A DNA stretch of 41,097 nt from Candidatus Aminicenantes bacterium (GTDB lineage: Bacteria > Acidobacteriota > Aminicenantia > Aminicenantales > Aminicenantaceae). The notes below the pieces were generated by a model. The model did no database searches, was not told the DNA's origin, and saw nothing but the letters and a program-made list of their open reading frames with translations. Where the stretch lies: assembly GCA_050124775.1 (NCBI GenBank), contig JASFEP010000003.1, positions 1 to 41,097 on the forward strand, given 5' to 3'. Position 1 is the first letter of the stretch, and each line of letters opens with the position of its first letter. This document shows positions 2,913 through 38,487 of this stretch, piece by piece. The translations under genes and the position numbers were made by a program.

Positions 2913-3115
2913 TCTGTACTCCTTAAAATATATTTCTACAGTTGTGGTTGGAGAGTAAGTGTTGGGAGATCAAAATTCTGGAGAACTTTGATCAAATCAA
3001 AGAGAGTGTCACTAAAGTGCTTTGGAGATGCTTCCCTGTATGTCTTGCGATTTATCTGGAATTTATATACACTTTTTATCCGGAAAAAATCCTAGCCACC
3101 CGAAAGGACCGCACA

Positions 3116-4780
3116 ATGACATCAAGATGGACACGCGTATTTTTCGTTTTACTTTTTTCCTGCAGTGTTGTTTATGGAGCGCTTGCTCTTTCGCAGTCGG
3201 CGACTGCCGAACAAGAGCTGAAAACCATTGCTGAGTCCAGCAATTTTACGGCAACCTCCCGCTATACGGATGTTATGGCGTTCATCAAAGCGCTCAAGGG
3301 ATCGAGCCCTTTGTTTCGTGTGGAAACTCTGTGTTTGAGTACAGAGGGCCGCGAGGTCCCGCTGCTTGTCCTCGGTGCTCCGCCCCCGACATCTCCTTTG
3401 GAGCTCAGGCATGATAAAAGAACCGTCGTCTATATCCAAGCCAACATCCATGCCGGGGAGGTCGAGGGCAAAGAGGCTTCGCTCATGCTGGCAAGAGACA
3501 TTGTCCTAGACAAAGATATCTCTTATCTGGATAAGCTGATCATTCTGATCGCACCGATTTTCAATCCGGACGGCAACGAAAGGATCAGCAAAACCAACAG
3601 AAGAAATCAGGCTGGCCCCGAGGAGGGCGTGGGCATCCGATACAACGGCCAGAATCTCGATTTAAACAGGGATGGCATAAAGATGGAAAGCCCTGAAGTC
3701 CAAGGCCTGGCTCGCAACGTGCTCAACCGCTGGGATCCCGCCCTGCTCATCGACTGTCACACGACAAACGGATCCTACCACAAAGAGCCAGTCACCTATG
3801 TGTGGCCTCTGAATCCGAACGGAGACCTGTCTTTGATCATCCACCAGAGAGAGACGATGATGCCCTGGGTGAATAAAACATTAAAGGATAAATACAACAC
3901 TTTGTCGATCCCCTACGGGAATTTTATGGACTTCAAAGATCCCGAAAAAGGCTGGCACCCTGCCGGCCCTCAATGCCGGTACATCACGAATTACATCGGC
4001 CTGCGCAACAGGATGGCTCTCTTGTTGGAAAACTACGCTTATGCGGATTACAAAACGCGCGTTTACGGGAATTATTTTTTCCTCCGTGCGGTTCTCGATT
4101 ACTGTTATGCGCATGACACAGAGATTCGACACCTCATCCAAAAAACGGACCAGCGGATGATAGAGAAGGGATCGAAACCAGAGCCATCGGATGTTTTCGC
4201 CACGAGCTACGACCTAAAGCCGCTCAAGGAACCGCTGACGATCCTCGGCTGGGAGATGGAATATGATCCTGAATCCAGGGATTATCCCCGAGTCCGGAAA
4301 ACAGAGGTCGAAAGAACTTACACCCTCCCCTACTACTCCGATTATCGACCAAAGACCAGTATCTCATTCCCCTTTGCCTACCTGTTGACAGTGAGCGACG
4401 AGGGCATTCTCACAAAGCTCCTCCAACACGGGATATCCGTAGAAAAACTGACAGATGCCGTGGTTCTGGAGGTCGAATCCTTTAAAATCGAGGAGGTCAA
4501 AGGCAGCCAAAGGATCTACCAGGGACACCGTTTGAACACGGTCAAAGGCGACTATGCCACCGAGACTAAAGACTTTTCCTCGGGGACACTCCTTGTCCGG
4601 ACCGCACAGCCTTTGGGGAATCTTGCGGCGTATCTTCTAGAAGCGGAAAGTGACGATGGTCTTCTTGTTTGGAATTTTTTTGATAGATATATCGTTGCCC
4701 AGTGGGGGCGTGGCCCCCGAACATTCCCCGTCTACCGTCTATTGAAACCTGCTCTTCTTCCCGCAAAGACCATTCGCTAA
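3116..4780 (+). CDS. Secreted M14-family zinc carboxypeptidase-like metallopeptidase
   Basis: IHAGEVEG (HxxE), NPDGNE, RYNGQNLDLNRD and DCHTTNG motifs; signal peptide after ATG 3116 with AAAGGA RBS. Confidence 0.9.
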   Translation: MTSRWTRVFFVLLFSCSVVYGALALSQSATAEQELKTIAESSNFTATSRYTDVMAFIKALKGSSPLFRVETLCLSTEGREVPLLVLGAPPPTSPLELRHDKRTVVYIQANIHAGEVEGKEASLMLARDIVLDKDISYLDKLIILIAPIFNPDGNERISKTNRRNQAGPEEGVGIRYNGQNLDLNRDGIKMESPEVQGLARNVLNRWDPALLIDCHTTNGSYHKEPVTYVWPLNPNGDLSLIIHQRETMMPWVNKTLKDKYNTLSIPYGNFMDFKDPEKGWHPAGPQCRYITNYIGLRNRMALLLENYAYADYKTRVYGNYFFLRAVLDYCYAHDTEIRHLIQKTDQRMIEKGSKPEPSDVFATSYDLKPLKEPLTILGWEMEYDPESRDYPRVRKTEVERTYTLPYYSDYRPKTSISFPFAYLLTVSDEGILTKLLQHGISVEKLTDAVVLEVESFKIEEVKGSQRIYQGHRLNTVKGDYATETKDFSSGTLLVRTAQPLGNLAAYLLEAESDDGLLVWNFFDRYIVAQWGRGPRTFPVYRLLKPALLPAKTIR

Positions 4781-6709: not shown

Positions 6710-7026
6710 GCTTATTATTTTATAACTCCTGGTAAAGTTTTTTGCAAATTCCGGCCCTCTCAGCCACGAATCTCCAGAAGCACTACGACACAAATTCCGG
6801 TCACATTGATGATTGACCCGAATGTGTGGTGGAGTTTACCTTGAGAGGAACGAATAGGTTGAGGTGTTTTTCTATAAAGGGTCCGCTTCCCGAACGACCC
6901 CTTAAGGATACTGTCCCTAAATAGCGTGCTTTCGAACCAAGGACCAGGCAGCTCCAGTATCATTTTTGGGATACGTCCCGCTGCTGAGGCTGAAGAAATA
7001 TGCAGCTAATAAAATTGAGGAGAGGA

Positions 7027-8076
7027 TCAGCTAAGTTCGATCTTTTCAATATGGATTCTGTCCAGATCACTCACGCCTATGCCCTTTTTTCCGGCCAGTG
7101 CGATGTGATCCATCGGGCGGTTCTCTTCTGCGAAGGTGCGAAGCGCCCTGGACTTGCGTTCATTCTGAATGATGTTTAAACCCACTGCGTCCAGGGCTAC
7201 AGGATCGGAACTCATCCAGATGGACCTGGGCGAAAAAAGAGACCTCAAATTTCTGGGCCGCGGACCCCGCTCATAACAGGCTTCAAGACCATCCAGAATG
7301 TGGAGAACAACCTTTTTTCTGACTTCCGGGAATGCGCAAAAATCCGCGATGAACGGCCCGATATGCTCAGACCCATGAAAGCGGGCATTGTTTTCACACA
7401 AGCCATAGGCAAGATTCTTGAGGCTAAGCGTCACTCCACACAAACCGTGGTCCTTGAGGATCGGCATATTGATGATCTTGTCACATTCCTGTGTGAATAT
7501 TCTCGAAAAATAAGAATCGGTCCCTCCCTCCTCTCTTTTTTCCGGATCGTCATTTTTTGACGAGTAGGCCAGATCTTTATCAATGCGATCCGATATCAAT
7601 TGATCTGTTGATATTGTTCCATAACACCTGACGCCTGTCCCAGTGGTGTTGAATTCGAATTCACAATCGGCCATGTGTTTTTCGAACCGATCCCACACGA
7701 TGATGTTGTTTTCTTTAACACCGAATTCTTTGAGCTCGGATACAACGCCACGGATAAGTTCATGGTGTGTAAAAAGAAGAGGGCGGCCCAATGTGTTTAT
7801 CTTGAGCCCTATCCTATCCTCAGGACCGATGAATCGCGCCCAGGGATCGTCTGAGCCATTTAGCTTTCGTATTCCCTCTCGTACCATTTGGCGGACGACC
7901 TCTTCGTCCAAGATCCGTCCCGACTGTAAAACTTCGGGGTGTTTCACTTCAACGATTGTTGCAGTCTGCGTTTCTTGCGACCCAAGTCTTAAACCGGACC
8001 CAAAGGCGACACCAGCGCCTAACACTGCTGAGGAGCTTCTTTTGATGAACTCACGTCGATCGATCCTATTTCTCAT
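7027..8076 (-). CDS. Tat-signal DUF362-domain protein
   Basis: DRREFIK twin-arginine motif; IGLKIN, INMPILKDH, TLSLKN and DPVALD motifs; ATG 8076 with GGAG RBS. Confidence 0.85.
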   Translation of the reverse strand: MRNRIDRREFIKRSSSAVLGAGVAFGSGLRLGSQETQTATIVEVKHPEVLQSGRILDEEVVRQMVREGIRKLNGSDDPWARFIGPEDRIGLKINTLGRPLLFTHHELIRGVVSELKEFGVKENNIIVWDRFEKHMADCEFEFNTTGTGVRCYGTISTDQLISDRIDKDLAYSSKNDDPEKREEGGTDSYFSRIFTQECDKIINMPILKDHGLCGVTLSLKNLAYGLCENNARFHGSEHIGPFIADFCAFPEVRKKVVLHILDGLEACYERGPRPRNLRSLFSPRSIWMSSDPVALDAVGLNIIQNERKSRALRTFAEENRPMDHIALAGKKGIGVSDLDRIHIEKIELS

Positions 8077-8279
8077 CTTTGTCTCCGGGATTTCAGAATA
8101 CACTATTATTCTCATCAACTCAATATAATTTTCCACAGAGGCCGCTTTTTCAAAAGCTCGATCCTTTCCATTCTGTTTTTGGAAACACGTGCGCATTTTT
8201 ATTATGAGTTGACGTCAGAGGAGGATTCGAATAGTATAAGATTCAGTAAGCACGCGCATTTCTCAACAAGGAGAGCACT

Positions 8280-8906
8280 TTGAAAAACATAATATTTTTT
8301 GCGTCAGTTGTCCTATTTTTTCTCGTTTCCACAGTTGGGGGATCCCTTTCAGCAGAACAAACCGAGGCTCCCGAAGCAGAGCTCCCCGCGCTCGTGACCT
8401 CATGCGGGCAGAGCCCTGGCGCCACCATGCTGAAAGTCATTTTTATGAGAATGAAGCTTGAACACCCACCCAAAGCTTATGAGATCAACATGTTGGCCAG
8501 TGCCGACGACCTCAAATCTGCGAAAAACGCAGGAACTCCATATAAATCTTTGATCATCGTGATGGGTGCCAGTTTAAAGGGAATGGGCGCCGCAGGAATT
8601 TCTATGGACGATGAGATATCCAGGACCGAAGAACTCATCGCGGAGGCAAATAATCAAGGGATCAAGATCATCGGGGCCCATATCGAAGGCATAAAAAGGC
8701 GCGCACAGGGTGTTGCTGCGGGTGACAACACGGATGAACTGAGTATCGATACGGTCGCACCGAAATCCCAACTACTCATCGTCCGCAAGGACGGTAACGA
8801 AGATGGCCGGTTCACGTTGATCGCCCAGGAAAAAAACATACCACTTATCCTCATAGAGAAAAACCTGGATCTTTTGCAAGAGCTCGAAAAGATCTATAAG
8901 GATTAG
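8280..8906 (+). CDS. Exported DUF6305-like protein
   Basis: Signal peptide; LVTSCGQSPG, IIVMGASLKGMGAAG and GAHIEG..RR motifs as I recall them for this family; GGAG RBS before TTG. Confidence 0.7.
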   Translation: MKNIIFFASVVLFFLVSTVGGSLSAEQTEAPEAELPALVTSCGQSPGATMLKVIFMRMKLEHPPKAYEINMLASADDLKSAKNAGTPYKSLIIVMGASLKGMGAAGISMDDEISRTEELIAEANNQGIKIIGAHIEGIKRRAQGVAAGDNTDELSIDTVAPKSQLLIVRKDGNEDGRFTLIAQEKNIPLILIEKNLDLLQELEKIYKD

Positions 8907-9065
8907 ATTTTTCTAAAGGACATTTTTTGCTAAAATATCGGAGAAAAAGGGATTTTGATTCGATCATGGAAGATGAATTATCGAGTACGGAATCTTTGTG
9001 TTGAACCGACTAAAGGAATAAGGCCATTAGAGGGAACGATAATACATCTCGGGTAAGACAATAAA

Positions 9066-9653
9066 ATGGCGGATATTATTGGACAGATCACACTCGTCAA
9101 CATCCTCAGTGTGTTGCTTTTGATCGCTTCCATCTGGCTGCTCGTCATTATCGTTCAGAAAAAAACCGGTTACATGTTTCGCGCAATGGTATTTTTCCTT
9201 TTTGTTCTATTGGCCCTGATCTACTTTCAACAGAGCGAAGCAAAAAAGTATACCCTCTCTGATGTCAGATATGCTCTCTTCCCCAAAAAAAGCCTCCCTT
9301 TGAATTACCATGTTGCGGAGGATTCCCAGCCTGGGACAGTTGTTCGGTATGTTTTCGAAGACCCCAAACCTAGGATTCCCGTTTCTATGGATAAAAACGG
9401 CAAATATTTTCACATCAACAATATCACCCCTATAAATGATATCTTGAGCGAGATGAAATTGCCTCGAGTCAAAAAGGGGGCTAAGGAGCTCGCATCGATC
9501 ACAGGAAAGAGCGCACACAAAAATCTGTACCGATGGGATGATTACCCCAGAGGGATCTTGACTCTCGAGCGGGCCATCTGCAGAAACAGGGAAACGCTCG
9601 ATAGCTTCAACTGTCTAATCGCGATTACTATCCGAAAAAGATACCGCGAATAA
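9066..9653 (+). CDS. Hypothetical membrane protein (2 N-terminal TM helices plus a soluble domain)
   Basis: Two hydrophobic stretches in the first 55 aa. Confidence 0.75.
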   Translation: MADIIGQITLVNILSVLLLIASIWLLVIIVQKKTGYMFRAMVFFLFVLLALIYFQQSEAKKYTLSDVRYALFPKKSLPLNYHVAEDSQPGTVVRYVFEDPKPRIPVSMDKNGKYFHINNITPINDILSEMKLPRVKKGAKELASITGKSAHKNLYRWDDYPRGILTLERAICRNRETLDSFNCLIAITIRKRYRE

Positions 9654-9749
9654 ACGACCTTCATCGCTGCGGGCACTTTCAAATCTTGACTCATTTCGAC
9701 GAGATATTGCATTTCCCCGTGATATCGACTACATTAGAGAATCTGTCAA

Positions 9750-11036
9750 ATGTCCGCATCTATAGAGATCATCTTCGCCGTGATGGTTGTCAGTTATATT
9801 GCCGCGAAGTCCTTTAAAATTTCGACCGAACTCTCCATGTTTTTCGCTGCGATTGTCGGTGGGCTTGTGGGAGGTGTGGGCATTCCTGCCCGTCATATCG
9901 TAGAAGGAGCTTTTACCTATTTCGACATCATACTCATTTTTGTGACGGCCACATTTTTTATGAATCTTCTCAAAGAATCCGGGGGTGTGGCCTATGTGGT
10001 GAGGGGGATCATTCAAAAGTTCTCCGATAAAAAATCCATCCTTTTTATTCTCATCACATTCCTCCTTCTCCTGCCAGGAGCACTGACAGGCGCGGGGAGC
10101 GTGACCGTTTTGATCACTGGGGGGATGATCGCTGTCGTCTTGGAATACATGGGCCTCTCCAAAGCCAAAACAGCGGCAATCATTTTTATAATCGCAGGGT
10201 TGAGCGCCGCGGCCCCACCTGTCAGTTTATGGGCTATGCTAACTGCGGCAGGTGTGAATATGCCCTATGTCGGATTCTTCCTCCCGCTCCTTATTCCCTG
10301 TGTTGTTCTTTCCTTGTTGACGATCTTTGTTCTGGGATGGCGAGGTAAATCCGTGGACCTTGACAAGGCTCTGCAGGAACTCCCGGAAGCGCCACTGCGA
10401 ATGACCTGGGTCAAAGTCGTCTTGCCTTTTCTCGTTTTCTTTGTTCTTGTTCTTGTGGGGCGGATATGGCCGCATTCGTTTCCAATTGTAGGACTACCCA
10501 TGATGTTCGTCGCAGCAGCGGCTGTCTCTTATGTCCTTTCCCCTGTGAAGCTCAACATCTTCCACATAGCCAGAGACACAGTGCACCAACTGTTGCCCCT
10601 TGTCGGCACTCTCACCTGTGTGGGGATCCTGGTGCAGATCATGACACTTACCGGTGTGCGTGGACTTATCGCGATCACGGTGGTGACTTTGCCCATATTG
10701 ATCGTTTTCTTATCTCTGTTCCTGGTGCTCCCCGTATCGGAGGCCGTGCTCATGTGGGGTGCCGCCCCAGTTCTCGGTGTTCCGTTGGTCCTTCTTTTTA
10801 ACACCATCGGCCTCAATCCAATAGTCGCCCTGGCCGGGATGAGCGTGATCTGGCCGTTGGGGGACGCGCTTCCTCCCACAGCGATCATAGGACGCCTGAC
10901 AAAAGATACGGTGGGAATGGAGGAGCCCTATGTTCACATGCTCAAACACTGTCTGATCCCTGCGATTCTCATCATGATCGCAGGAACGCTCATGGTGATC
11001 TTCAGCAAGGAACTCAGTTTTTTAACTTTATTATAG
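9750..11036 (+). CDS. DctM-like (TRAP large subunit / ion-transporter superfamily) permease
   Basis: ~11-12 TM segments; KESGG, PGALTGAG, SAAAPPVS and ALPPTA hairpin motifs. Confidence 0.8.
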   Translation: MSASIEIIFAVMVVSYIAAKSFKISTELSMFFAAIVGGLVGGVGIPARHIVEGAFTYFDIILIFVTATFFMNLLKESGGVAYVVRGIIQKFSDKKSILFILITFLLLLPGALTGAGSVTVLITGGMIAVVLEYMGLSKAKTAAIIFIIAGLSAAAPPVSLWAMLTAAGVNMPYVGFFLPLLIPCVVLSLLTIFVLGWRGKSVDLDKALQELPEAPLRMTWVKVVLPFLVFFVLVLVGRIWPHSFPIVGLPMMFVAAAAVSYVLSPVKLNIFHIARDTVHQLLPLVGTLTCVGILVQIMTLTGVRGLIAITVVTLPILIVFLSLFLVLPVSEAVLMWGAAPVLGVPLVLLFNTIGLNPIVALAGMSVIWPLGDALPPTAIIGRLTKDTVGMEEPYVHMLKHCLIPAILIMIAGTLMVIFSKELSFLTLL

Positions 11037-11070
11037 ATGACATAAAATCAAATGGGATAATCGACGAGCC

Positions 11071-11220
11071 ATGGTGATTACAATCCTTTATTATCTTCTA
11101 ACCGGGGCAATTGCCCTTCTGATGATTCACAATTTTATTCGGAGCAAAAAATGGCAGGAAGAAATGCTCTACATTCTCGTGCTTCTGCCCTTTCTCCTGC
11201 GGCTCTTTCGACTGAAATAG
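11071..11220 (+). CDS. 49-aa two-TM membrane microprotein (absent from the ORF track)
   Basis: Translated by hand: MVITILYYLLTGAIALLMIHNFIRSKKWQEEMLYILVLLPFLLRLFRLK; fills the gap between permease and deacylase and ends 9 nt before the next ATG. Confidence 0.75.
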   Translation: MVITILYYLLTGAIALLMIHNFIRSKKWQEEMLYILVLLPFLLRLFRLK

Positions 11221-11229
11221 AGGGAATCG

Positions 11230-12402
11230 ATGTGTGCTAAAGAATACACTCCGATCAGAAAAACGATGATCGCTATATTGGGTCTGCTCCTCTGTGTGTT
11301 TGCCGGTGCCAATTTCTTCCGGAGCCGTCATCTTAAGGAGCCTGTGGTCCTGAGTCCGGGTGTCGGTGAGGTCAAACATCTGAGCGACTATTTTCCGGGT
11401 ATAAAGGGATCGGTCAATGATGCGTTCGTCTATATTCTCGAGGGGGAAAAAGGGGGTGGGACATTCCTCATCCTGGGGGGCACTCATCCTGAAGAGCCGG
11501 CTGCGCGTCTGGCAGCCTGGATCTTCGTGGAAAATGCACATGTCACCCAGGGCAGGCTTTTTGTGGTTCTCTCTGCAAACAGGAGCGGCACCACCGTTAC
11601 CCGGTTGGGAGGGGGTTATCCACCGGATTACACGATCGATACGCCCTGGGGGGGACAAAAATTCCGGATGGGGGATCGCTGGTCCAATCCTCTGGATCAA
11701 TGGCCGGACCCGGAGGTCTACATCCACTATCCGAGCAAACAGGAGCTGGCCTATGTGGATATCAGGAATCTGAATCGCACATGGCCTGGCCGCTCGAACG
11801 GAACACTCACAGAGAAGACATGTTACGCAATGACCGAGCTTATTCGCAGAGAAAAGGTGGATATCGTCATAGACCTGCATGAAGCGGAACTTCAGTATCC
11901 GGTCATCAGCACCATCGTCGCTCACGAAAAGGGTCAGGACTTGGCTGCTATGGCTTCGATGATGATCAGCGGTACAGAAGGTTTCGACATCGGGATGGAG
12001 AACTCACCCTATGCCCTCCGCGGCCTCTCTCATAGAGAGATCGGAGACCATACGGATGCCATTTCTCTTCTCCTCGAGACTCCAGAGCCATTCCTGGATG
12101 CGACACGTGGCCGGACAGACAGAGCGCTGCTCCTCGAAGGCAAAGATAGATTCGTCATGAGAGCCGGAGAGCACGGGCTTCTCTTCGAAAGGATGGATGA
12201 AAAGGGATGGCCCATCGATAAACGTGTGGGCCGCCACTGCTCATCCATACTCCAGATTGCAGAACTCTGGACAGAAGACCATCCGGAAAAGGGCCTTAAA
12301 ATGACAAAGGTCCCCCGTTATCTTGAGATTATCGAAAAGGGCACGGGTTTCTTTCTCCGCGATCCTGAGAAAGCTGATCCCGAAAGGATCCGATACGAGT
12401 AG
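11230..12402 (+). CDS. Membrane-anchored/exported succinylglutamate desuccinylase / aspartoacylase-family (M14-like) zinc hydrolase
   Basis: GGTHPEEP (HxxE), RNLNRTWPG, VIDLHEA motifs; N-terminal hydrophobic segment. Confidence 0.85.
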   Translation: MCAKEYTPIRKTMIAILGLLLCVFAGANFFRSRHLKEPVVLSPGVGEVKHLSDYFPGIKGSVNDAFVYILEGEKGGGTFLILGGTHPEEPAARLAAWIFVENAHVTQGRLFVVLSANRSGTTVTRLGGGYPPDYTIDTPWGGQKFRMGDRWSNPLDQWPDPEVYIHYPSKQELAYVDIRNLNRTWPGRSNGTLTEKTCYAMTELIRREKVDIVIDLHEAELQYPVISTIVAHEKGQDLAAMASMMISGTEGFDIGMENSPYALRGLSHREIGDHTDAISLLLETPEPFLDATRGRTDRALLLEGKDRFVMRAGEHGLLFERMDEKGWPIDKRVGRHCSSILQIAELWTEDHPEKGLKMTKVPRYLEIIEKGTGFFLRDPEKADPERIRYE

Positions 12403-12443
12403 GATGGTGGTCTTTTCATCGAACACTCCCTTCCAATAAGACG

Positions 12444-13592
12444 CTAAGCTTTGCGAAGAACAATCCCACGAAGCCGCGCAAGAAACAGAAGGAGAATGAC
12501 AAGAAGAATATAAACAATCCCTAATCCAAAAATGAATCCCTGTCTTTCTCCTGTCATCCTGTAAAAGGCGCCCTCTCCTGGAACCGGGAGTGGCGATGGG
12601 TCCCACGCCAAGCCGTAGCGTTGGGTCAGGCCTCTAAGGTAAAGGAGATGGATCACCGGGATCCCCCCGGCTGCCATGGCATAGACGACACCCTGCCGTT
12701 CGGGCGGAGGGAATTTTTCGATCCGATTCAGTCCCGGCTTCAGATGCAAAACCATCGAATCCAAACCCATATTGGACCAGCTGCCGCCGATGTTTATGAA
12801 AGCCTTGATGTTTTTCCCTTTTGCTGCCTTTTCGAATAACGCCATCCGCAAAGCCACGTTCTGAGGCAGTTCAGGCTCATCGAGGAAGGGGAATCCGCTC
12901 CCGCGGATATCCTCCCAGAGGAGCTCACGTCCCTCTTCATCCATGTCCATTCCTGTATCTCCTTCACCTCCGAGCGATATAGCGAGCGGAGGTTTGCTGA
13001 AAAGACCGCTCTCTTCCAAACACTGCCACATATGAAGCCAGTGAAAGCGGGAATTGTTGGCTCCCCATTGAGAGGCTCCGAGGGAGGATATCCATAGAGG
13101 ATCGATGTCCAGCGTTTCGACGGCAGCCAAAGAGGCAATAATCAGAGCTGGAAAGGACCCAGAGGCGCCAATAGCGACACAATCCCCCTTTTCGACATCG
13201 CATTCCCTGAGGAGCCGGAGGATAAGTCCAGCAAAGTTGGGATTTGTGCTCGTTCTTTTCGACCCCAGATTGCCGATCGAAGTCGTGATCTCTGAATTCT
13301 CCATACCTATAATGCCGGTTCCGTTGATATCCGTGCTTCTATCGATCCTCAAACCTTTTTGCTGACGGCATGCCCTCAGAACATCTGTGGCACTTTCCAT
13401 AAGACGCGATGCCTGGATCATCTCAATCACTAAATTATCAGCCCCTTTGTAAGGAAGATACTTCCATAAAATATAAAAGGCGACACTTAACACACAGAGA
13501 ATGAGCATCACGCGCGCGTCGTTTTTCGGATTTTCTTTGGGGAATCGGTATCGCTTCAACATGTCTTTCTCATCACTTTCCTGTCTCATCAT
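12444..13592 (-). CDS. pgsW: Poly-gamma-glutamate system protein PgsW
   Basis: DINGTGIIG..SEITTSIGNLGSKRTSTNPNF, GASGSFPAL, SSLGASQWGAN, FINIGG; N- and C-terminal TM; directly after pgsC; start uncertain (13640, 13592 or 13562). Confidence 0.85.
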   Translation of the reverse strand: MMRQESDEKDMLKRYRFPKENPKNDARVMLILCVLSVAFYILWKYLPYKGADNLVIEMIQASRLMESATDVLRACRQQKGLRIDRSTDINGTGIIGMENSEITTSIGNLGSKRTSTNPNFAGLILRLLRECDVEKGDCVAIGASGSFPALIIASLAAVETLDIDPLWISSLGASQWGANNSRFHWLHMWQCLEESGLFSKPPLAISLGGEGDTGMDMDEEGRELLWEDIRGSGFPFLDEPELPQNVALRMALFEKAAKGKNIKAFINIGGSWSNMGLDSMVLHLKPGLNRIEKFPPPERQGVVYAMAAGGIPVIHLLYLRGLTQRYGLAWDPSPLPVPGEGAFYRMTGERQGFIFGLGIVYILLVILLLFLARLRGIVLRKA

Positions 13593-13626
13593 TTTTTTAT
13601 AGCGGGATATAAAGAGCGTTTTTCGA

Positions 13627-14067
13627 TCATGGGAGCACATGCTGGAGCACTCGGACCACCGCATAAGTGAATACGGCCACTGTTACGAGCGAGATAAGAG
13701 TGGGGACGAACCGCTGCCTCTCGAGATTGTTTGCCAACAGACCCGGAATGAGCCAGCCGATGGCCCTCAATCCAAAAGATTCCGGGAAGAATTGAGGGAA
13801 GACAGAGGACCAAACCTGCGCCAATACGGCGCCTATAAATATAAAGGTCACAAACCGTCTCTTTCCGAAAAGTATCACATGCCTGGAAAGGAGCTTGTAA
13901 AGAAAGACACAGAGAACAGCAACGGCCACAGTCACGGCCACACGCAGGGGTTGGTCGAGATAGAGGGCGATGTAAGCAGGGACAATGATGCCGCCGGGGT
14001 ACACGCCGAAGAGCTCTACATACAGGATAGCAACCAGCAGGCCGATGAAAATCGTTTCATAACTCAT
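13627..14067 (-). CDS. pgsC: Poly-gamma-glutamate biosynthesis protein PgsC/CapC
   Basis: GVYPGGIIVPAYIAL, ILFGKRRF, RAIGWLIPGLLAN motifs; start overlaps the pgsB stop. Confidence 0.92.
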   Translation of the reverse strand: MSYETIFIGLLVAILYVELFGVYPGGIIVPAYIALYLDQPLRVAVTVAVAVLCVFLYKLLSRHVILFGKRRFVTFIFIGAVLAQVWSSVFPQFFPESFGLRAIGWLIPGLLANNLERQRFVPTLISLVTVAVFTYAVVRVLQHVLP

Positions 14068-15241
14068 ATCTTTTTCCTGTCCTTTCCCAATAATCGACAA
14101 GACCCGCCCCTGCACCTCCCATGTTGCCCATGCCGATCACCACAACCTTTTCTTCTGTCATGCCGGAAAGCCGGAGCATGATCTCTTCTGGCTGAAGATT
14201 ATGCCAGGCATGGAGTTCTCGTCCCGTGTATTTTTTTAGCTTACGAATCATGGCCGGTGCGTGATGACCCAAACAGATGAGTTTCTGGATCTCGGAAAAT
14301 TTTCCGTACCTCAGAGCTTCCAGCCACAACAGGGTCCGATCGCCCCGGTCTTCCCTTAGATTCAGCACGCCGATAACTGTCCTTCCTTCGAGAAGGAGAT
14401 TTTTCCTCAACTTGGAAAGAATCAACTGTGTGGACTCCGGTTCGTTGGCGGCGAAAGCGCTCACAAAATACCAATCCGGCCGGTATGGAGTGCTGAGCGC
14501 AGTCCATACCTTTAAGCTTCCGAAGTCGGGCAGAACTTCGCCCGTCGCCTGGAATACCGTGGAAGCATCCTGCTCTAAAAACTCACACACGGATACGCAC
14601 AGGCGAATATTTTCATCGAATTCTGAGGAGAAGATTCCGTTTTTTTTACCCATGTATGAGTTATGAGCTTCGCGGACCGGGATCAATTCGGTCTTTCTCG
14701 ATTGCGCTGTTCTACGGAAGACAGAACAGATCTCCTCCTGCGGAACAAAAACCGTGCCTTTTGCGGGAATAGCGCTTGCAAAACAGGCTGCAATGTGTTC
14801 TTTTGTGCTCCCCATATGAGCTGTATGATCCAGCCGGACATTGGTGACACAAAGGATATCGGGCCTAAAGATCTTTTGGGATTCCACATAAATGGTCTCG
14901 GGTTGAATGGCCATCAACTCCACAACACAAGCGTCGACGCGAAGCTTGTTCGCGAGCCGAAGGATCTTTTTTCCTTCGAGGATAGTGGCCGGCCCACGCC
15001 GCGCGATCACTCTTTCGCTTCCATCGGGGAATATCAAAACTGGTTTCGCTCCGGTCGTACGGGCAAGCACAGACATCCCCGAACCTCGCAAGGCGGCGGT
15101 GATAAGACGAGTAACGCTGGATTTTCCCCGCGTTCCCGTCACACAGATGCGCAAGGGAACAGAATCGACCATCCCCCGAAGATAGGCCCACTCGACACAA
15201 AGGAAGATCAGCCAAATGGCCAACAAACTCCCGGTGATCAA
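14057..15241 (-). CDS. pgsB: Poly-gamma-glutamate synthase PgsB/CapB (Mur/FolC-like amide ligase)
   Basis: VTGTRGKSSVTRLI P-loop, ARTTG, VVELMAIQP, TNVRLDH, AFAANEPEST, NLREDRGDRT, GMGN; N-terminal TM. Confidence 0.92.
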   Translation of the reverse strand: MITGSLLAIWLIFLCVEWAYLRGMVDSVPLRICVTGTRGKSSVTRLITAALRGSGMSVLARTTGAKPVLIFPDGSERVIARRGPATILEGKKILRLANKLRVDACVVELMAIQPETIYVESQKIFRPDILCVTNVRLDHTAHMGSTKEHIAACFASAIPAKGTVFVPQEEICSVFRRTAQSRKTELIPVREAHNSYMGKKNGIFSSEFDENIRLCVSVCEFLEQDASTVFQATGEVLPDFGSLKVWTALSTPYRPDWYFVSAFAANEPESTQLILSKLRKNLLLEGRTVIGVLNLREDRGDRTLLWLEALRYGKFSEIQKLICLGHHAPAMIRKLKKYTGRELHAWHNLQPEEIMLRLSGMTEEKVVVIGMGNMGGAGAGLVDYWERTGKRYEL

Positions 15242-15367
15242 AAGTTCTCTGATCGTTCTCTCCTCTGACTAATACGCAAGCTGCCAGGACAAACCAAGAT
15301 TTTGCACTGTTTACTATCGTGCCTTTACAGTTACACCTTTTTTCATTCTACAAAAACTCTAGACTCC

Positions 15368-17689
15368 CTAGAAGGAGAATTCTTGGTCCTGGATCCCTCG
15401 CCCCGCATCCATAATTCTCATCAAGTTTCCGGAGAAAATGTTCGTGAGCTCTCTCCTTTCAAAATCAGCCCGGGCGATCTCTGCAAAGACTTTGAGCAGT
15501 GCTTCTTTTGTTGATTTCCCCCACATACATGCTTCATTGACGAACACGACAGATCGTGATCCCAAGGCATCTTTGAGCTCTGTAAGCTTCGTTACGTAAT
15601 CAGCGGGTTCTTCATTGCCCCAAATGAGTCCAACCGCCGAGTCTTTTCTCTTGATAGATTCGAGCACGCTCTTTTCTGGAATGTCCTTCACCAGCAAAAG
15701 AAGAGGTTTTCTTGCTCTTTTCAAAAGAGCCTTTGTGTTTTCAGGACCGAAGTCTTTGACAATGAGAAACAGATCGCCGTCGTTTATGGCCTTTAGATTT
15801 TTTTTCCCTTGATCGCTCACGCCCTTTTCATCGAACAACACATGCTGTTTTTCAATCAACACAAAACACAATCCTGTACGGCCAAACACAGGAGCCCATC
15901 TGAAGTCGTCCTGGAACACATTGATTCCTCTGAGACCGGGAACAACTACGGTTTTCCCCTGCCCGAAGATCGAATTGGCGCTCCTGGCTGATCGGTAGAG
16001 CGAGAGTCCTTTGGCCTCTTTCACCCTCTCTGCGGCTGATAGGAATTTTTTGAGAGTGTCGAATCTGAGGGCATCTTCGGTCAGCTCCTCATCTTCCTCC
16101 AGGATCGACAGCTGGAGTCTGACATGAGAGCCCTCGGCATCGCCGTGATTGGCAATCACATTTTCAAGCGGCGGCATTTTGAAATTGGGCAGGTTCAGGT
16201 ATTTGAGGTAGAAGTTCTCTTCTCTCATCGGATGGATAAAATCCCCTGATTCCGCCGCGAGAATTTCGACAGCTGCGCTCACCAAGTCCCCCGTCTTTTT
16301 CAATATAGCGGGGTTAATCAGGTCCGCATCGTCCCGCGGGCGATGGTATTTGAGATGGGGCCCATCCGAAGCTAAGGCCCAAGCAGAAACGCCCTTCATC
16401 AGGAACGGTGTATGGTCCGAACCGCCGGGGCCGCCTGGTTCGGCCTTGGTGTATTCCAAAATCTCTTGGGGGAGTTTTTCTTTGAGAATATTCCAGATTT
16501 TGGGCCCATAGGTCGTACCTCGGAAACGTATATTCCGTGTTCCATGCCCGACCATATCCATGTTGAAATAAACTATCGTCTTTGCGATGGGATGTGTGGG
16601 GTGGTCGACGTAGTACTCGGACCCCAGGAGCCCTTGCTCCTCTGCAGCCCAAGCGGCGAAAATGACCGTTCGTTCGGGCTTGTAATCGTTGAGCTTCATG
16701 ACTCTGGCTATCTCCATGGTCACCGCTGTCCCCGATGCATTATCATTAGCGCCGTTCATGACGTCTCCTATAGGACTGACTCCCAAGTGATCCATATGAC
16801 CGCCGACAATGATGGCCTCGTCCTTGAGCGTGGGGTCGCTCCCCGATATTTTGGCAAGGATGTTCCGCGTTTTTCTCGCCTCATCGAAGATCGCATTCAC
16901 AGAGACAAAAGCCTTCACTCCTGTCGCAAAAGATTTTGGGAGTTGTCCCGCGCCAGTTCTCCGGAATGAACGTCCGAAATCCATCGGCAATTCTTTAAAG
17001 ATAAAATTGGTCACGCGATCCTCTATAGAAAGAATAACAAATTCCGGATCGTGAAGTTTTTTATCGATCCTCATCCGAAAATAGCTCGATGCACCGGGAC
17101 TGGATGGCCGGAATACGAGCACACCCAGAGCACCCATATCCTGGGCCGTTTTTATGCGGCCATCGATCGTTGCAGCGTCGCCGATTTTGTTCGCGAGCGT
17201 TGGCGGAACAGCGGCCGACATGAGCAGGATCTTATCGTTGACATCCAGTCCGGCATAGTCATCGCGTTTTTGATCGGGCGCCTGAATCCCATACCCGACG
17301 AACATGATCTCTGCCGTAAAGTGACCGGAACCCGAATAGCGCTGCACGCGCCAGTCGTCCCCGTAATAAAAATCTCTTCGGGCTTTATCGGTGATGACCT
17401 CAAAGATCACACCCTCTTCCACATTGTTGTGCTCAATGGTAAATTCCTGGAAATAGGAGCCCTGCTCTCCGGCAGGCTCGAGGCCCCACTCCTTGAACTT
17501 AGCGGAGATGTACTTCTCTCCCATCGCACCGCCGAGCTGTCCGCTTTTGCGGCCCAGCATGGCATCTGCAGCCATATCCTTTATGTAATTGTGTGCTCGG
17601 TGTCCATCAAACTCGATCCTCTTCTCTTTGGCCCATCCGAGAGAGAGAAGAAGAAATAGGATAAACAAATATCCGACCGATTTTTTCAC
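15368..17689 (-). CDS. Secreted M28 peptidase with PA domain and a C-terminal degenerate M19-like domain
   Basis: Signal peptide; FVGYGI..DDYAGLDV (PA); GGHMDH, NGANDNASG, AAEEQGLLGS, NMDMVG, SDH and YH motifs. Confidence 0.9.
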   Translation of the reverse strand: MKKSVGYLFILFLLLSLGWAKEKRIEFDGHRAHNYIKDMAADAMLGRKSGQLGGAMGEKYISAKFKEWGLEPAGEQGSYFQEFTIEHNNVEEGVIFEVITDKARRDFYYGDDWRVQRYSGSGHFTAEIMFVGYGIQAPDQKRDDYAGLDVNDKILLMSAAVPPTLANKIGDAATIDGRIKTAQDMGALGVLVFRPSSPGASSYFRMRIDKKLHDPEFVILSIEDRVTNFIFKELPMDFGRSFRRTGAGQLPKSFATGVKAFVSVNAIFDEARKTRNILAKISGSDPTLKDEAIIVGGHMDHLGVSPIGDVMNGANDNASGTAVTMEIARVMKLNDYKPERTVIFAAWAAEEQGLLGSEYYVDHPTHPIAKTIVYFNMDMVGHGTRNIRFRGTTYGPKIWNILKEKLPQEILEYTKAEPGGPGGSDHTPFLMKGVSAWALASDGPHLKYHRPRDDADLINPAILKKTGDLVSAAVEILAAESGDFIHPMREENFYLKYLNLPNFKMPPLENVIANHGDAEGSHVRLQLSILEEDEELTEDALRFDTLKKFLSAAERVKEAKGLSLYRSARSANSIFGQGKTVVVPGLRGINVFQDDFRWAPVFGRTGLCFVLIEKQHVLFDEKGVSDQGKKNLKAINDGDLFLIVKDFGPENTKALLKRARKPLLLLVKDIPEKSVLESIKRKDSAVGLIWGNEEPADYVTKLTELKDALGSRSVVFVNEACMWGKSTKEALLKVFAEIARADFERRELTNIFSGNLMRIMDAGRGIQDQEFSF

Positions 17690-17913
17690 GATTTACCTCC
17701 TCTTATACTTCAACCCTTCACTATTCAATCGATTGACTCGATAAAAAGTCAGTGAAATGCGTGATCAAGCTTGATCTCAAAAGGCTTCTATTATACCGAA
17801 TTCAGACAGACAATAGGAAATTGAATTTTCTTCGAGGGAATCTCCCTCCTGGCATAGAAGCTTGAATGCCCTTTGGAAAATTGCTTGTCAGCCAATTTTT
17901 TGAATATTCCCGA

Positions 17914-20121
17914 TCAATTGAAGAGGAAGGTCGTCTTGACCATAACAACCCGGTCCTTTAAATAACTCTGACCCCCTCCCTCGCGGGTCTCGTTGTAGAT
18001 AAAATAAACGTTCGCACCCGGTTTGTAGATCCATCGAATGAGGAAATTGCCCTTGAACACATCGTCATCATCGTTATACTGAAGATAAGCTTTAGCATAC
18101 AGATTTGGGGTGAAAGAATAGATAATTCTCGCGGCAGCGATGTTTGTGTTGAATTTTCCGCCATCCACCGGCAAGTTGAAATTGTTATAGTCATAGATGA
18201 ATTCGACATTGAGATGTTTGGAGAATTTGACGAAACCGCTGACGTTCAATCGGTAGAGATTCCCGTTGTAAAAATCCCCCAAGTAGGTGTTACCTCGAAC
18301 AGATATCTTTTTGCTCCGGTCAGACTGAAAGAATCCCGAGAAAAAGTTAAAACGATGAATGCCCTCGGGAATAAAAACATCCTCCCTGATCTCGAACGGT
18401 TCCTCCAGATACTCGTAGCTTCGCACATAGCCAAAGTATAGATTACTTCCGTTCTGGAAGAAATTGAATGAACCCAGGCTTTGAGACCTCGACTCCAACT
18501 GTCCCGAGTGATTCTCGAGATAGATGACATTAACAAAGAAATAACTCTGCCTGAGATTGAATATCTTCGGACGGGGACCGACACCAAAATCGGCGCGGAA
18601 TCTTCGCATGTCGGCTCTCGGAACATACCCCATCTCAGAGTTAAAATTCTCCCCTATATCCGTATAAACCAACCGCCCTAAGACAAAATCGGTGTTGTAG
18701 TTCATATCCAGATTCGCAGCCCAGTCTTTCCCTTCGAGATCTGGGCTGAACGTCTTCCCCAGAAATCCCTCTGCACGGAAAGACTGGCCGAAAGCCAGGT
18801 TAACATCGAAGACGGCTCCGCGATTGTAGTGCGAACTGTCGAGAGACTCTCGGCTAAGGACCATCGCCCCTATGGTGGATTTCTCTAAAAAATCCTTTTT
18901 CAGCCTAAAAACCGCATGGTTCATCCGCTCTATTCGGACATCCTCGTCATCGACAGTGTATGAAATCCTGTCGGTCAATATATCGAGAACCCCAAGGCTG
19001 TAGCCTCCTGTTTTTCCAGTGATTCTAAACCCTCCCATAACAGGAATTTCCTCACCATCTTCGGAGAGACCGATGGTCCTGCTGTAAAAGAATCGCATGC
19101 CCGGTGGTTCAAAAGGATCGAAGAGCTCACCCACATAAAAAAGATCCGCGCCCTCCAAAAAAAAACCTCTTTTTTCTGGGAAAAAGAGAGAGAACCGGGT
19201 CAGGTTGAACTGCTCAAGGTCTGCCTCGACCTGCGCAAAATCCGTGTTGATGGTCAAATCTGCTGTTATGTTGGATGTAAGCCGGTATTTGAAATCGAGC
19301 CCGATGTCTCCGGAGGCACTCAAGGAAGATTCGTCTTCCTCCTGAATCCCCCCCGCTATCACATAGGGAATCAGATGAAGCCGCTTGCCCTGTTTGAGTC
19401 CCTCAAACCCAGTGATATTGCCGAAATAAGAGATCCTGTATTTCCCGAAGTACCCTAGATCTCGAGAAATAGGTGCCCAATAAGCCTCTTCTCTCTTCCG
19501 TGCGATGTGTCGGCCGAAGTTGACGCCCCAAGTCTGTCGATCCGCGGTCTTAAACCGGAGTGTGAAAAAGGGAATGGCGATCTCGATCGTCCATCCACAC
19601 TCATCCCTCTGGGTCTTGGAATACCACAAACCATCCCAATCCCAATTGATTCGGCTGCCCTCCCCGCTGATCAGAGCATCCCTCCGCGCTCCCAGAGGAT
19701 TTGTCATAAAATAGGCCGCGTTCCGGTGATCGTGGTAGGTGTCCAAATAGATCTCGAAATAGTCATTATCCTGGAGGGGGGCATCCCTTCGCATCTCGCT
19801 GGCCACAATCTGATCCGGTTGGCTATCGTAGCAATTAACACCTATGTATAAATAGTCATCGTCATACAGGATGCGAACCTCGGTTGCTTCTGTAATGGGC
19901 TCTCCCTCCCGGGGTTCTCTCTGAGTGAGATCGCCGATCACTTCGGCCCTTTGCCAAGCCATATCGTCAAGCTTTCCGTCTACAATGATCGGTTCGGCCG
20001 CTCTTACAGCTCGAATCTTTAATTCTTCAGGCTGCTGGGAGAACAGGAGGAATGGGTAGAGAAACACCAAACCTATCGCTCCTGCTGAGTTTCTTCTCCA
20101 CATCTTCTTGCTCTGTCTCAT
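17914..20121 (-). CDS. CBM9-like plus DUF5916 outer-membrane protein
   Basis: VDGKLDD..W, TEVRILYDDDYLYIG, WTIEIAIPF, TINTDFAQVEAD, NLTRFSLFFPEKRGFFLEG; beta-strand-rich C-terminus. Confidence 0.85.
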   Translation of the reverse strand: MRQSKKMWRRNSAGAIGLVFLYPFLLFSQQPEELKIRAVRAAEPIIVDGKLDDMAWQRAEVIGDLTQREPREGEPITEATEVRILYDDDYLYIGVNCYDSQPDQIVASEMRRDAPLQDNDYFEIYLDTYHDHRNAAYFMTNPLGARRDALISGEGSRINWDWDGLWYSKTQRDECGWTIEIAIPFFTLRFKTADRQTWGVNFGRHIARKREEAYWAPISRDLGYFGKYRISYFGNITGFEGLKQGKRLHLIPYVIAGGIQEEDESSLSASGDIGLDFKYRLTSNITADLTINTDFAQVEADLEQFNLTRFSLFFPEKRGFFLEGADLFYVGELFDPFEPPGMRFFYSRTIGLSEDGEEIPVMGGFRITGKTGGYSLGVLDILTDRISYTVDDEDVRIERMNHAVFRLKKDFLEKSTIGAMVLSRESLDSSHYNRGAVFDVNLAFGQSFRAEGFLGKTFSPDLEGKDWAANLDMNYNTDFVLGRLVYTDIGENFNSEMGYVPRADMRRFRADFGVGPRPKIFNLRQSYFFVNVIYLENHSGQLESRSQSLGSFNFFQNGSNLYFGYVRSYEYLEEPFEIREDVFIPEGIHRFNFFSGFFQSDRSKKISVRGNTYLGDFYNGNLYRLNVSGFVKFSKHLNVEFIYDYNNFNLPVDGGKFNTNIAAARIIYSFTPNLYAKAYLQYNDDDDVFKGNFLIRWIYKPGANVYFIYNETREGGGQSYLKDRVVMVKTTFLFN

Positions 20122-21705: not shown

Positions 21706-22659
21706 CTATATCTTGACCTCTGCGATTTTGACTTTATTAAGGCTCATCTCACCCAGACCGTGATCATGGGCCATCTTGATCTGGAAGATGTCTTCGGGCT
21801 TTAGCCCCCACAGGGTGCAGCAATAAGCATCCATGGCCACCCGGTCCTGACCGGCCACGACTTTTTGCGGCTTTGTGATCTCGCCCGGGCCCATCGGACC
21901 GTTGGTGATGATAAACTCTGTGGCATCCACAACACACAGTGTGGGAAGAATCACGGTGTTGAGATCCGCGATGCATTGGTCAAGGTGTTTGATGTCATTG
22001 ATCTCTGTTTTCCACCCGGGTTTGTGGAAATTCTCTCTGTTATTTTTACGATGATTCAATCCCATCATATTTTTCATCGTTCCCGTGAATTTGTTTCCAG
22101 CGTGGTCCTTCGTGATGGGGATGTCGATGAACACATCATTGTTATAAAATTCCTTCATGATCATCGCCTCTTTGAGGGCCCGTCCCATCGGCACTTTGGC
22201 GGGCTTGAAGTTCGCCTCATCGCTTGCAACCAGTTTTAAGTTGGCTCCCTCTTCCTTCAACACAGCTCCGAGCCCGGTCTTTTCCCAATTTTCCATCGTT
22301 AGCCAGGACAGACAGTTGACCTCTTCGGCGCCTGCCTTTTTACACATCTGGACGATGGCACGGACGATCTCGGGTTTAGTGAACGTCCCGGGATGCCATC
22401 TCTGGACGTTGGGAAGAATGGCAACTCTTGCGCCCTTAGGAATGAAGTGGTCCATTCCCCCGAGAAGTTCGACAGCTTTCATGGTGTTCGCATAATAATC
22501 GGCCCCCTCAACGACAGCGATATCATGCGCTCCGTGGGCCATGGCAAGTGCTTTTGGGACATGAACGAAATGACCGAGGGCTGTCCCGCCCACCGCAGCA
22601 GTCAGACCATATTGGGCACTTTTTTTGATGAATTCTCTTCGTCCTATTTTATTCCCCAT
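21706..22659 (-). CDS. Tat-signal DUF362-domain protein
   Basis: GRREFIK; VAILPN, IDIPITKDH, TGTMKNMMG and DRVAMD motifs. Confidence 0.88.
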   Translation of the reverse strand: MGNKIGRREFIKKSAQYGLTAAVGGTALGHFVHVPKALAMAHGAHDIAVVEGADYYANTMKAVELLGGMDHFIPKGARVAILPNVQRWHPGTFTKPEIVRAIVQMCKKAGAEEVNCLSWLTMENWEKTGLGAVLKEEGANLKLVASDEANFKPAKVPMGRALKEAMIMKEFYNNDVFIDIPITKDHAGNKFTGTMKNMMGLNHRKNNRENFHKPGWKTEINDIKHLDQCIADLNTVILPTLCVVDATEFIITNGPMGPGEITKPQKVVAGQDRVAMDAYCCTLWGLKPEDIFQIKMAHDHGLGEMSLNKVKIAEVKI

Positions 22660-33463: not shown

Positions 33464-33493
33464 TACTTTATACGTAGATAAATAATAATGTTT

Positions 33494-35092: not shown

Positions 35093-35141
35093 CTTGATTT
35101 CCAATTATGATAAAAGAACACACGTCTTAAGGCAAATAAAA

Positions 35142-38381: not shown

Positions 38382-38487
38382 ATTGTCCCTCCTTCCTCTA
38401 TTGTTTGACTCCTGAAAAAATCATTCTAATCCTTTACCCCTCCCATTTCAATAAAAGAAGGTGTGTGTTATAAAAAGGAAACGGAAA

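Follow-up and report, generated by a model that had tools for sequence, protein, structure and literature searches.

A conserved partnership between pgsBCW genes and a DUF6305, permease and hydrolase module in Candidatus Aminicenantes and several other bacterial phyla

The biology of poly-gamma-glutamate is based almost wholly on Bacillus. A different and widespread design is considered here, found in a stretch of 41,097 nucleotides (hereafter the window; contig JASFEP010000003.1 of assembly GCA_050124775.1, positions 1 to 41,097 of the forward strand) from Candidatus Aminicenantes bacterium, an uncultured wetland organism whose assembly comprises 498 contigs and is 83.8% complete. The window carries the synthase genes pgsB, pgsC and pgsW on the minus strand and, converging on them, a plus-strand unit that encodes a DUF6305 protein, a protein of 195 amino acids (aa) termed orf195, a permease, a 49-aa membrane microprotein (orf49) and a zinc hydrolase of the AstE/AspA kind. 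The two units clearly form a conserved partnership in several phyla, and the system ranges over Aminicenantes, Gemmatimonadota, Bacteroidota, KSB1 and Clostridia. The attached module of four to five genes appears to face outward and consists wholly of unstudied parts. It may trim the polymer outside the membrane and import glutamate, the best of the readings considered, whose substrate and direction we infer and to which we give an even chance.

In Bacillus subtilis, pgdS is the next gene after the pgs operon and its enzyme is presumed to free chains, GGT takes single residues off the polymer, and CapD is an enzyme of the GGT family (PMC4497714, available part). The window locus resembles the Bacillus subtilis pgsBCA(E)+pgdS and Bacillus anthracis capBCADE loci in its PgsB and PgsC equivalogs and in having the gene of a candidate polymer-cutting enzyme beside the synthase, with a CapD-family GGT in some clusters. 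It differs in that PgsW (TIGR04332) stands in place of PgsA/CapA and in that its hydrolase is AstE/M14-like, whereas PgdS is an NlpC/P60 enzyme. The binding-type protein, the permease and the microprotein are additions with no known counterpart in the Bacillus loci, and the hosts of the system are mostly two-membrane bacteria. The arrangement parallels the Bacillus plan of a synthase with an adjacent degrader, but is built from different, unstudied parts plus a transporter.

Three further systems invite comparison. The TRAP transporters (DctP-DctQ-DctM) share with the module a three-part layout, in which one soluble exported component and one small membrane component accompany a permease of the ion-transporter superfamily with 12 segments, and the nearest Atlas clusters of the window permease include DctM-bearing ones. 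However, DUF6305 (about 175 residues when mature, generic alpha/beta) is not DctP/TAXI, and DctQ is far larger than the 49-aa hairpin of the window. A TRAP transporter proper was rejected, since no protein of the unit matched DctP or DctQ, whose places are taken by DUF6305 and the 49-aa protein, and DctM gave E = 1.1. The AstE/AspA family (succinylglutamate desuccinylase, aspartoacylase, DoeB) has the same HxxE...H zinc ligands as the window hydrolase, with profile matches of 2.5e-8 to 1.7e-5; known members are cytoplasmic, whereas the window hydrolase is predicted to be anchored and outward-facing, and its length exceeds that of the solved members (330-354 residues) by about 60 residues. Phage PghP, finally, is a 23-kDa soluble endo-hydrolase, a carboxypeptidase A relative that uses zinc and cleaves the gamma-glutamyl bond (PMC4497714, available part). 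Together with its relatives in Bacillus prophages it recalls the window hydrolase in the metal, in the carboxypeptidase-A-like kind and in a gamma-glutamyl substrate, shown for PghP and proposed here, but no sequence match between the two was found (Pfam at E <= 10; phage tblastn). Full-text literature searches, supplementary files aside, found no description of the system and no paper on DUF6305, on TIGR04332 or pgsW in bacteria, or on polyglutamate in the lineages considered here.

Linkage of the module to pgsBCW across genomes

Two sets of gene neighbourhoods were compared. Those of the permease came from the best 80 of 357 relatives in a species-genome collection; those of pgsW came from the best 80 of 293 loci retrieved with a 7-sequence PgsW alignment, nearly all from Aminicenantes, and the pgsW-centred counts are lineage-biased. 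Of the 80 permease loci, 49 have pgsW in the flank, and among the 27 with the full 10 kb on both sides, 22 have it within that distance. Each of the five exceptions has TIGR04332 elsewhere in its genome, two of them 11-15 kb away on the same contig. Seen from pgsW, among the 40 loci with at least 9 kb downstream, permease plus hydrolase were present in 24, an orf195 homologue in 24, and either in 33.

Three gene orders were observed. The convergent order of the window occurs in 34 loci of the Aminicenantes type. In 15 loci from Gemmatimonadota, Bacteroidota and KSB1 all genes lie on one strand in the order pgsB-pgsC-pgsW-DUF6305-permease-microprotein-hydrolase. In the third form, again on one strand, the module is located upstream of pgsBCW (Clostridium tetanomorphum, Tepidanaerobacter, genomes G490 and G126, and the Bacteroidota genome G204). 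The permease tree has three deep clades, with pgsBCW linkage in all three, and the groups of the pgsW tree match those of the permease tree.

Counts over whole genomes were also made. Among 201 Aminicenantia genomes, 108 carry both units, one pgsW alone, six the permease alone and 86 neither. Close permease orthologues were present in 67 genomes, of which 58 carry pgsW no more than about 16 kb away on the same contig; the nine misses are mostly fragmented assemblies. In Gemmatimonadota, pgsW passed the cut-off in only 2 of 151 genomes and DUF6305 in those same two, adjacent in both, while in Clostridia (200-201 genomes) the three genomes with pgsW are among the eight with DUF6305. Descent alone does less well at explaining three gene orders and a patchy joint distribution. 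A lack of statistical co-occurrence or synteny between the units had been named beforehand as grounds for refuting the association; the link clearly survived this test, in three gene orders and several phyla. The earlier note had described the plus-strand unit as an arm tied to pgsBCW: the conserved partnership held, and the supporting comparisons with a PA-domain M28 peptidase and with PghP did not (see below). Because synthase and module each occur alone, the module is best regarded as an accessory arm and not as part of core synthesis.

Proteins of the synthase and of the module

The open reading frames (ORFs) of the window were matched to Pfam and NCBIfam profiles at curated cut-offs (Table 1). 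PgsB, PgsC and PgsW each score above the NCBIfam cut-off (TIGR04012, TIGR04011 and TIGR04332), which confirms the identities first given to these genes. By family, PgsB is an ATP-dependent gamma-glutamyl amide ligase and PgsC is the membrane subunit of the synthase. The PgsC protein has four hydrophobic segments, its profile match starts at residue 22, and the true start of pgsC is probably downstream of the longest-ORF start. The pgsW gene is positioned directly downstream of pgsC; its start is probably Met35 (13562), because the orthologue at locus L022 has a stop codon upstream of the matching position. In PgsW, membrane segments at residues 18-36 and 343-361 enclose a domain of about 300 aa that is predicted to face outward. 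TIGR04332 had no match in 14 control genomes. The AF2 model of PgsW (pLDDT 92.6) gave no Foldseek hit at E <= 1e-3 and VIA-align Z values of at most 8.2 on long helices only, and the PgsW profile matched nothing significant in the PDB.

No ORF of the window matches PGA_cap (PF09587) or GGT, in agreement with the earlier note, which had listed pgsA/capA and GGT as missing. A canonical PgsBCA/CapBCA system was rejected for the lack of a PGA_cap match among these ORFs. Elsewhere in the genome there are one unlinked CapA-family PGA_cap gene (contig C95) and six GGT matches. A CapA-less synthase is plausible, because polymer production from pgsBC without pgsA has been reported (PMC6029982, available part).

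The hydrolase had been described as an exported AstE/AspA-type zinc enzyme, and this description is upheld by its conserved zinc ligands, its matches to solved members and its N-terminal anchor, with PF24827 just under the cut-off. The profile of the hydrolase family matched the solved AstE/AspA structures 2qj8 (2.5e-8) and DoeB 6twl (3.5e-7), and also 3cdx and 3na6 (down to 1.7e-5), with the HxxE and DLH stretches aligned. The zinc ligands H86, E89 and H217 are invariant in 12 hydrolase sequences, as are the motifs R179-N180-x-N182-R183 and H268-R269-E270, RNxNR being of the carboxylate-binding type. PF24827 scores higher on related proteins, with 38.2 bits for the paralogue on contig C292 and 72.6 bits for a second hydrolase at the Clostridium tetanomorphum locus (L010). 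At E <= 10, AstE_AspA_cat was the only Pfam match, and a tblastn search of 50,697 phage records returned one weak unannotated match (9e-3). Since K/R residues precede its single N-terminal membrane segment (residues 9-27), the enzyme should be membrane-anchored with its catalytic domain outside the cytoplasmic membrane.

The permease has citrate transporter, DctM, DcuC and GntP, by name, in its nearest ESM Atlas clusters. The Pfam DctM profile (PF06808) reached 8.4 bits against a cut-off of 23.8, and hhalign gave a probability of 2% against two genuine DctM proteins encoded in this genome. The label DctM-like therefore holds at the level of the superfamily and fails at that of the DctM family. 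A 75-sequence profile retrieved 610 proteins at E <= 1e-3 and 159 at E <= 1e-30 among 1.84 billion representatives, and matched nothing significant in the PDB; judged from these matches, the permease is a member of a small orphan family within the ion-transporter superfamily.

The microprotein gene orf49 sits between permease and hydrolase in 75 of the 80 permease loci, separated from its two neighbours in the window by 34 and 9 bp, and Clostridia have a 47-aa counterpart at the equivalent place. An alignment of 65 sequences has 11 invariant residues, and 55 distinct DNA versions differ at the three codon positions by 0.30/0.10/0.59, a pattern by which orf49 is a real gene. Its product is likely a small subunit of the permease. 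A complex prediction for the permease, the 49-aa protein and residues 30-208 of DUF6305 scored 0.00, which is uninformative either way on binding.

Permease and microprotein are the most conserved parts of the module, with 66-92% identity across phyla, and this bears on a role in maturation or release, in which the hydrolase with DUF6305 would mainly cut nascent chains off the synthase, set their length or attach them to the envelope as CapD does, leaving the permease a minor salvage function. Chain release has been proposed for PgdS and chain anchoring for CapD (PMC4497714, available part), the predicted anchor of the hydrolase places it in the membrane that also holds PgsBCW, and orf195 remains with pgsW even where the module is missing. 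Nevertheless, the strong conservation of the two membrane proteins points to transport as central, and in Bacteroidia pgsBCW functions as a unit without the module. A role mainly in maturation or release is quite unlikely.

The DUF6305 protein carries an N-terminal hydrophobic signal at residues 4-22, and its homologue in Clostridium tetanomorphum a lipoprotein-type signal (LVACGS). The family is present in 67 of the 80 permease loci. The AF2 model (pLDDT 88) is an alpha/beta sandwich for which Foldseek and VIA-align returned only generic alpha/beta matches (TM <= 0.46), the best VIA Z value, 9.3, falling on ribokinase-like, GT-B half-domain and CheY folds. Its profile found nothing significant in the PDB, and a search of the ESM Atlas with PF19823 excluded gave no usable match. 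DUF6305 may bind a ligand outside the cytoplasmic membrane.

The orf195 product has membrane segments at residues 11-29 and 36-54, followed by a C-terminal domain of about 135 aa, and matches nothing in Pfam or NCBIfam. Its homologues in relatives are 30-84% identical, with codon-position differences of 0.345/0.288/0.504. The gene probably belongs to the synthase side: of the 16 pgsW loci without the module, 9 keep a homologue, and in several of these (L116, L124, L129, L131, L138, L144, L161) it follows pgsW immediately on the opposite strand.

Cluster contents, proposed mechanism and alternatives

The cluster of Clostridium tetanomorphum DSM 4474 starts with genes for a cell-wall-binding protein, a GGT (591 bits, lipoprotein signal), DUF6305, the permease, the 47-aa protein and the hydrolase, and ends with a second AstE-like hydrolase, pgsB, pgsC, pgsW, a histidine kinase and a response regulator. 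Genome G490 has the same core with an M14 peptidase and a GGT (590 bits) ahead of it. In G204 the order is permease, hydrolase, DUF6305, GGT, a racemase-like gene, GGT, pgsB, pgsC and pgsW, and in Gemmatimonadota and KSB1 a C69 peptidase gene lies 3' of the hydrolase. GGT has thus been recruited into module clusters repeatedly (in G204 with two copies), and in the genome of the window a GGT is found beside a DUF6305 paralogue. Because the hydrolase, DUF6305, C69, GGT and M28 proteins bear signal or anchor sequences, and because GGT is recruited, an outward-facing arm of hydrolysis plus uptake is supported.

Second, shorter AstE/AspA-like hydrolases are encoded between the main hydrolase and pgsB at loci L010 and L011; the former matches Peptidase_M99 with 31.8 bits in addition to PF24827. 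The racemase-like gene of G204 (locus L191) reaches 27.3 bits against an Asp/Glu-racemase cut-off of 31 and has a signal-like N-terminus; an exported racemase would be unusual.

PgsB and PgsC, with PgsW replacing PgsA, would make the polymer and move it across the cytoplasmic membrane, at whose outer face the plus-strand unit would act. The anchored zinc hydrolase would cut gamma-glutamyl ends from the polymer or its fragments, assisted in some lineages by GGT, C69 and M28 enzymes. Exported DUF6305 would capture the freed glutamate or a short gamma-glutamyl peptide, and the 12-segment permease with the 49-aa hairpin as subunit would import the hydrolysis product. The module would in this way set polymer length or release and recover glutamate. 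Going further, DUF6305, the hairpin and the permease may constitute a new binding-protein-dependent secondary carrier, TRAP-like in build but composed of unrelated parts, that, with the hydrolase and PgsBCW, closes a cycle of making, trimming and reimport. This extension is offered tentatively and is doubtful; if true, the carrier would be specialised for glutamate or short gamma-glutamyl peptides, and anaerobic peptide fermenters would use poly-gamma-glutamate as an outside store.

The same proteins might instead feed the synthase, the outward-facing hydrolases releasing glutamate from extracellular peptides or from gamma-glutamyl compounds, and DUF6305 with the permease importing it as feedstock for PgsBCW. 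Synthase and module are colinear, probably on one transcript, in Gemmatimonadota, KSB1, Bacteroidota and Clostridia; paralogous modules stand among general peptidases (C69, M14, M3), and genes for peptide use abound in the window (M14, M19, SBP_bac_5, amino-acid permease). However, a GGT and an AstE/M14-like enzyme suit a protease-resistant gamma-linked polymer better than ordinary peptides, and a degrader beside the synthase has precedent in pgdS and capD (PMC4497714, available part). Supply of this kind, the main rival reading, is unlikely in our view, and it predicts the same genes as trimming with reimport; nothing computed here separates the two.

A number of observations weigh against trimming and reimport of the polymer. 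Co-transcription of synthase and degrader in the colinear forms would fit a supply role equally well. The counted genomes are interrelated, and the counts overstate independence. No module was present within about 10 kb in 16 of the 40 pgsW loci; pgsW was found in four of 201 Bacteroidia genomes and DUF6305 in none, nor was DUF6305 found in three Flavobacteriia genomes with pgsBCW. Among the proteins, the hydrolase reaches 24.2 bits with PF24827, just below the cut-off of 25, DUF6305 has a generic fold without a specific match, and the comparison with PghP proposed in the earlier note found no sequence link to the phage enzyme (Pfam at E <= 10; phage tblastn). Five Clostridia without pgsW have a distant DUF6305 between a peptide-binding protein and a two-component system, and paralogous modules without pgsBCW occur beside C69, M14, M3, YkuD and beta-lactamase-family genes. 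The module could be a general peptide-scavenging device.

The paralogues come from two sources. A second Aminicenantia permease clade, 46-54% identical, forms DUF6305-permease-hydrolase units in that same company and is joined to pgsBCW in 1 of 6 examined. The genome of the window has further module copies broken at contig ends (contigs C189, C411, C292 and C232; loci L099, L098, L096 and L097), namely a GGT followed by a DUF6305 start, two C69 genes followed by DUF6305, a permease-hydrolase pair beside lytB, and a lone hydrolase fragment. From these extra copies the genome is taken to hold two or three modules, against only one pgsBCW.

Scavenging of general or cell-wall peptides, with no specific tie to the polymer and with both units lying in peptide-metabolism islands and travelling together, would account for these paralogues and for the pgsW loci that lack a module nearby. 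Weak Peptidase_M99 matches point the same way (24.6 bits for the C292 paralogue, as well as the second hydrolase of Clostridium tetanomorphum), this family being one that presumably cuts the gamma-D-Glu-DAP bond of cell-wall peptides. Against it stand the three independent gene orders with short gaps, the identity of the two Gemmatimonadota genomes that carry both units side by side, the proximity of the units in most orthologue-bearing genomes and the linkage in all three deep permease clades. We consider scavenging alone very unlikely. The module family is best read as an outward-facing device for hydrolysis plus uptake, one branch of which is dedicated to pgsBCW loci.

The five Clostridia also suggest sensing, in which DUF6305 would bind the ligand for a sensor kinase, signalling extracellular glutamate or polymer and regulating the locus: there DUF6305 lies between a peptide-binding protein and a histidine kinase plus response regulator, and in Clostridium tetanomorphum and G490 a kinase and a regulator follow pgsW. 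No kinase adjoins the unit in the window or in the Gemmatimonadota-type clusters, where DUF6305 is coupled to the permease, and transport and sensing can share one binding protein. Sensing as the role of DUF6305 is extremely improbable.

If trimming and reimport is the role of the module, it would represent the first pathway dedicated to regaining glutamate from the polymer, and DUF6305, an orphan transporter family and a conserved microprotein would each acquire a function. It would also suggest that sediment peptide fermenters bank glutamate extracellularly. The cultivable Clostridium tetanomorphum DSM 4474 has a complete 11-gene version, from GGT to response regulator, which makes the system testable at the bench.

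Gene table and neighbouring genes

The region comprises ten genes, five on the plus strand (DUF6305 to hydrolase) and five on the minus strand (pgsW to DUF5916/CBM9). Every gene claimed in the earlier note was recovered, as were the gaps of 41 bp between hydrolase and pgsW and of 126 bp between pgsB and the M28 gene; its list of four plus-strand genes had overlooked a fifth, orf195. A promoter and terminator scan of 6800-18200 found sites at numbers not above those of shuffled sequence (8 against 11.3 and 16 against 11.8), and the operon limits are therefore drawn from the gaps only.

Table 1. Genes of the region, other genes of the window and genes at related loci (L numbers)
Feature	Position	Strand	Evidence or remark
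DUF6305 protein, 208 aa, exported	8280-8906	+	PF19823 157 bits (cut-off 25), profile positions 3-154
orf195, 195 aa, two N-terminal membrane helices	9066-9653	+	no family
Permease, 428 aa, 12 hydrophobic segments	9750-11036	+	no Pfam/NCBIfam family
orf49, 49-aa membrane microprotein	11071-11220	+	conservation among relatives
Zinc hydrolase, 390 aa, AstE/AspA (M14-like) kind	11230-12402	+	PF24827 AstE_AspA_cat 24.2 bits (cut-off 25)
pgsW, about 372 aa from Met35	12444-13562 (longest ORF to 13664)	-	TIGR04332 330.7 bits (cut-off 100)
pgsC	13627-14115 (longest ORF)	-	TIGR04011 114.7 bits (cut-off 96.45); PF14102 122.6 bits (cut-off 27)
pgsB	14057-15241	-	TIGR04012 266 bits (cut-off 222.7); Mur_ligase_M PF08245 34.7 bits
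M28 metallopeptidase, 773 aa, exported	15368-17689	-	PF04389 158.7 bits, residues 276-473
DUF5916 protein with CBM9-like domain, 735 aa	17914-20121	-	beyond the M28 gene, at higher coordinates
M14 carboxypeptidase	2942-4777	+	
DUF362 gene	7027-8196		
DUF362 gene	21709-22659		
SBP_bac_5 peptide-binding protein, HAMP histidine kinase, sigma-54 response regulator, in series	30666-35104	-	
M19 dipeptidase	35304-36551	-	
Creatininase-family amidohydrolase	37482-38381	-	
Amino-acid permease	38461-39894	+	
Second AstE/AspA-like hydrolase, 239 aa	L010:7675-8391	+	PF24827 72.6 bits; Peptidase_M99 31.8 bits
Second AstE/AspA-like hydrolase, 204 aa	L011:2818-3429	+	
Asp/Glu-racemase-like gene	L191:14213-15289	-	27.3 bits (cut-off 31)
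Three small genes (303, 234 and 297 aa) after pgsBCW	L190:7390-9837	-	no DUF6305 module

The M28 peptidase upstream of pgsB has a signal-like N-terminus. It had been likened to GCPII as an M28 enzyme with a PA domain; the M28 catalytic domain is present, but searches of the full-length protein and of its last 510 residues found no PA domain at E <= 0.01, and the GCPII analogy is thus unsupported. Of the 50 loci with at least 2.6 kb of DNA upstream of pgsB, 17 have an orthologue (at least 40% identity) there; all 17 are of the Aminicenantes type, and on this distribution the peptidase is a lineage-specific neighbour of pgsB. Orthologues of the DUF5916/CBM9 protein occur at the equivalent place in L022 (82% identity), L065 (65%), L059 (62%) and L077 (52%), with at least eight further paralogues in the genome. 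This protein may act with the polymer system at the outer membrane.

In the Flavobacteriia genome G203 (locus L190), pgsBCW is followed by three small genes and no DUF6305 module. The middle gene has weak beta-sandwich matches (CarboxypepD_reg-like), and the trio may be an outer-membrane export set.

Genes for the use of peptides and amino acids are abundant in the window (M14, M19, SBP_bac_5, creatininase-family amidohydrolase, amino-acid permease). The row of peptide-binding protein, histidine kinase and response regulator on the minus strand resembles the order SBP_bac_5 - DUF6305 - kinase - regulator of the five Clostridia without pgsW (L184-L188).

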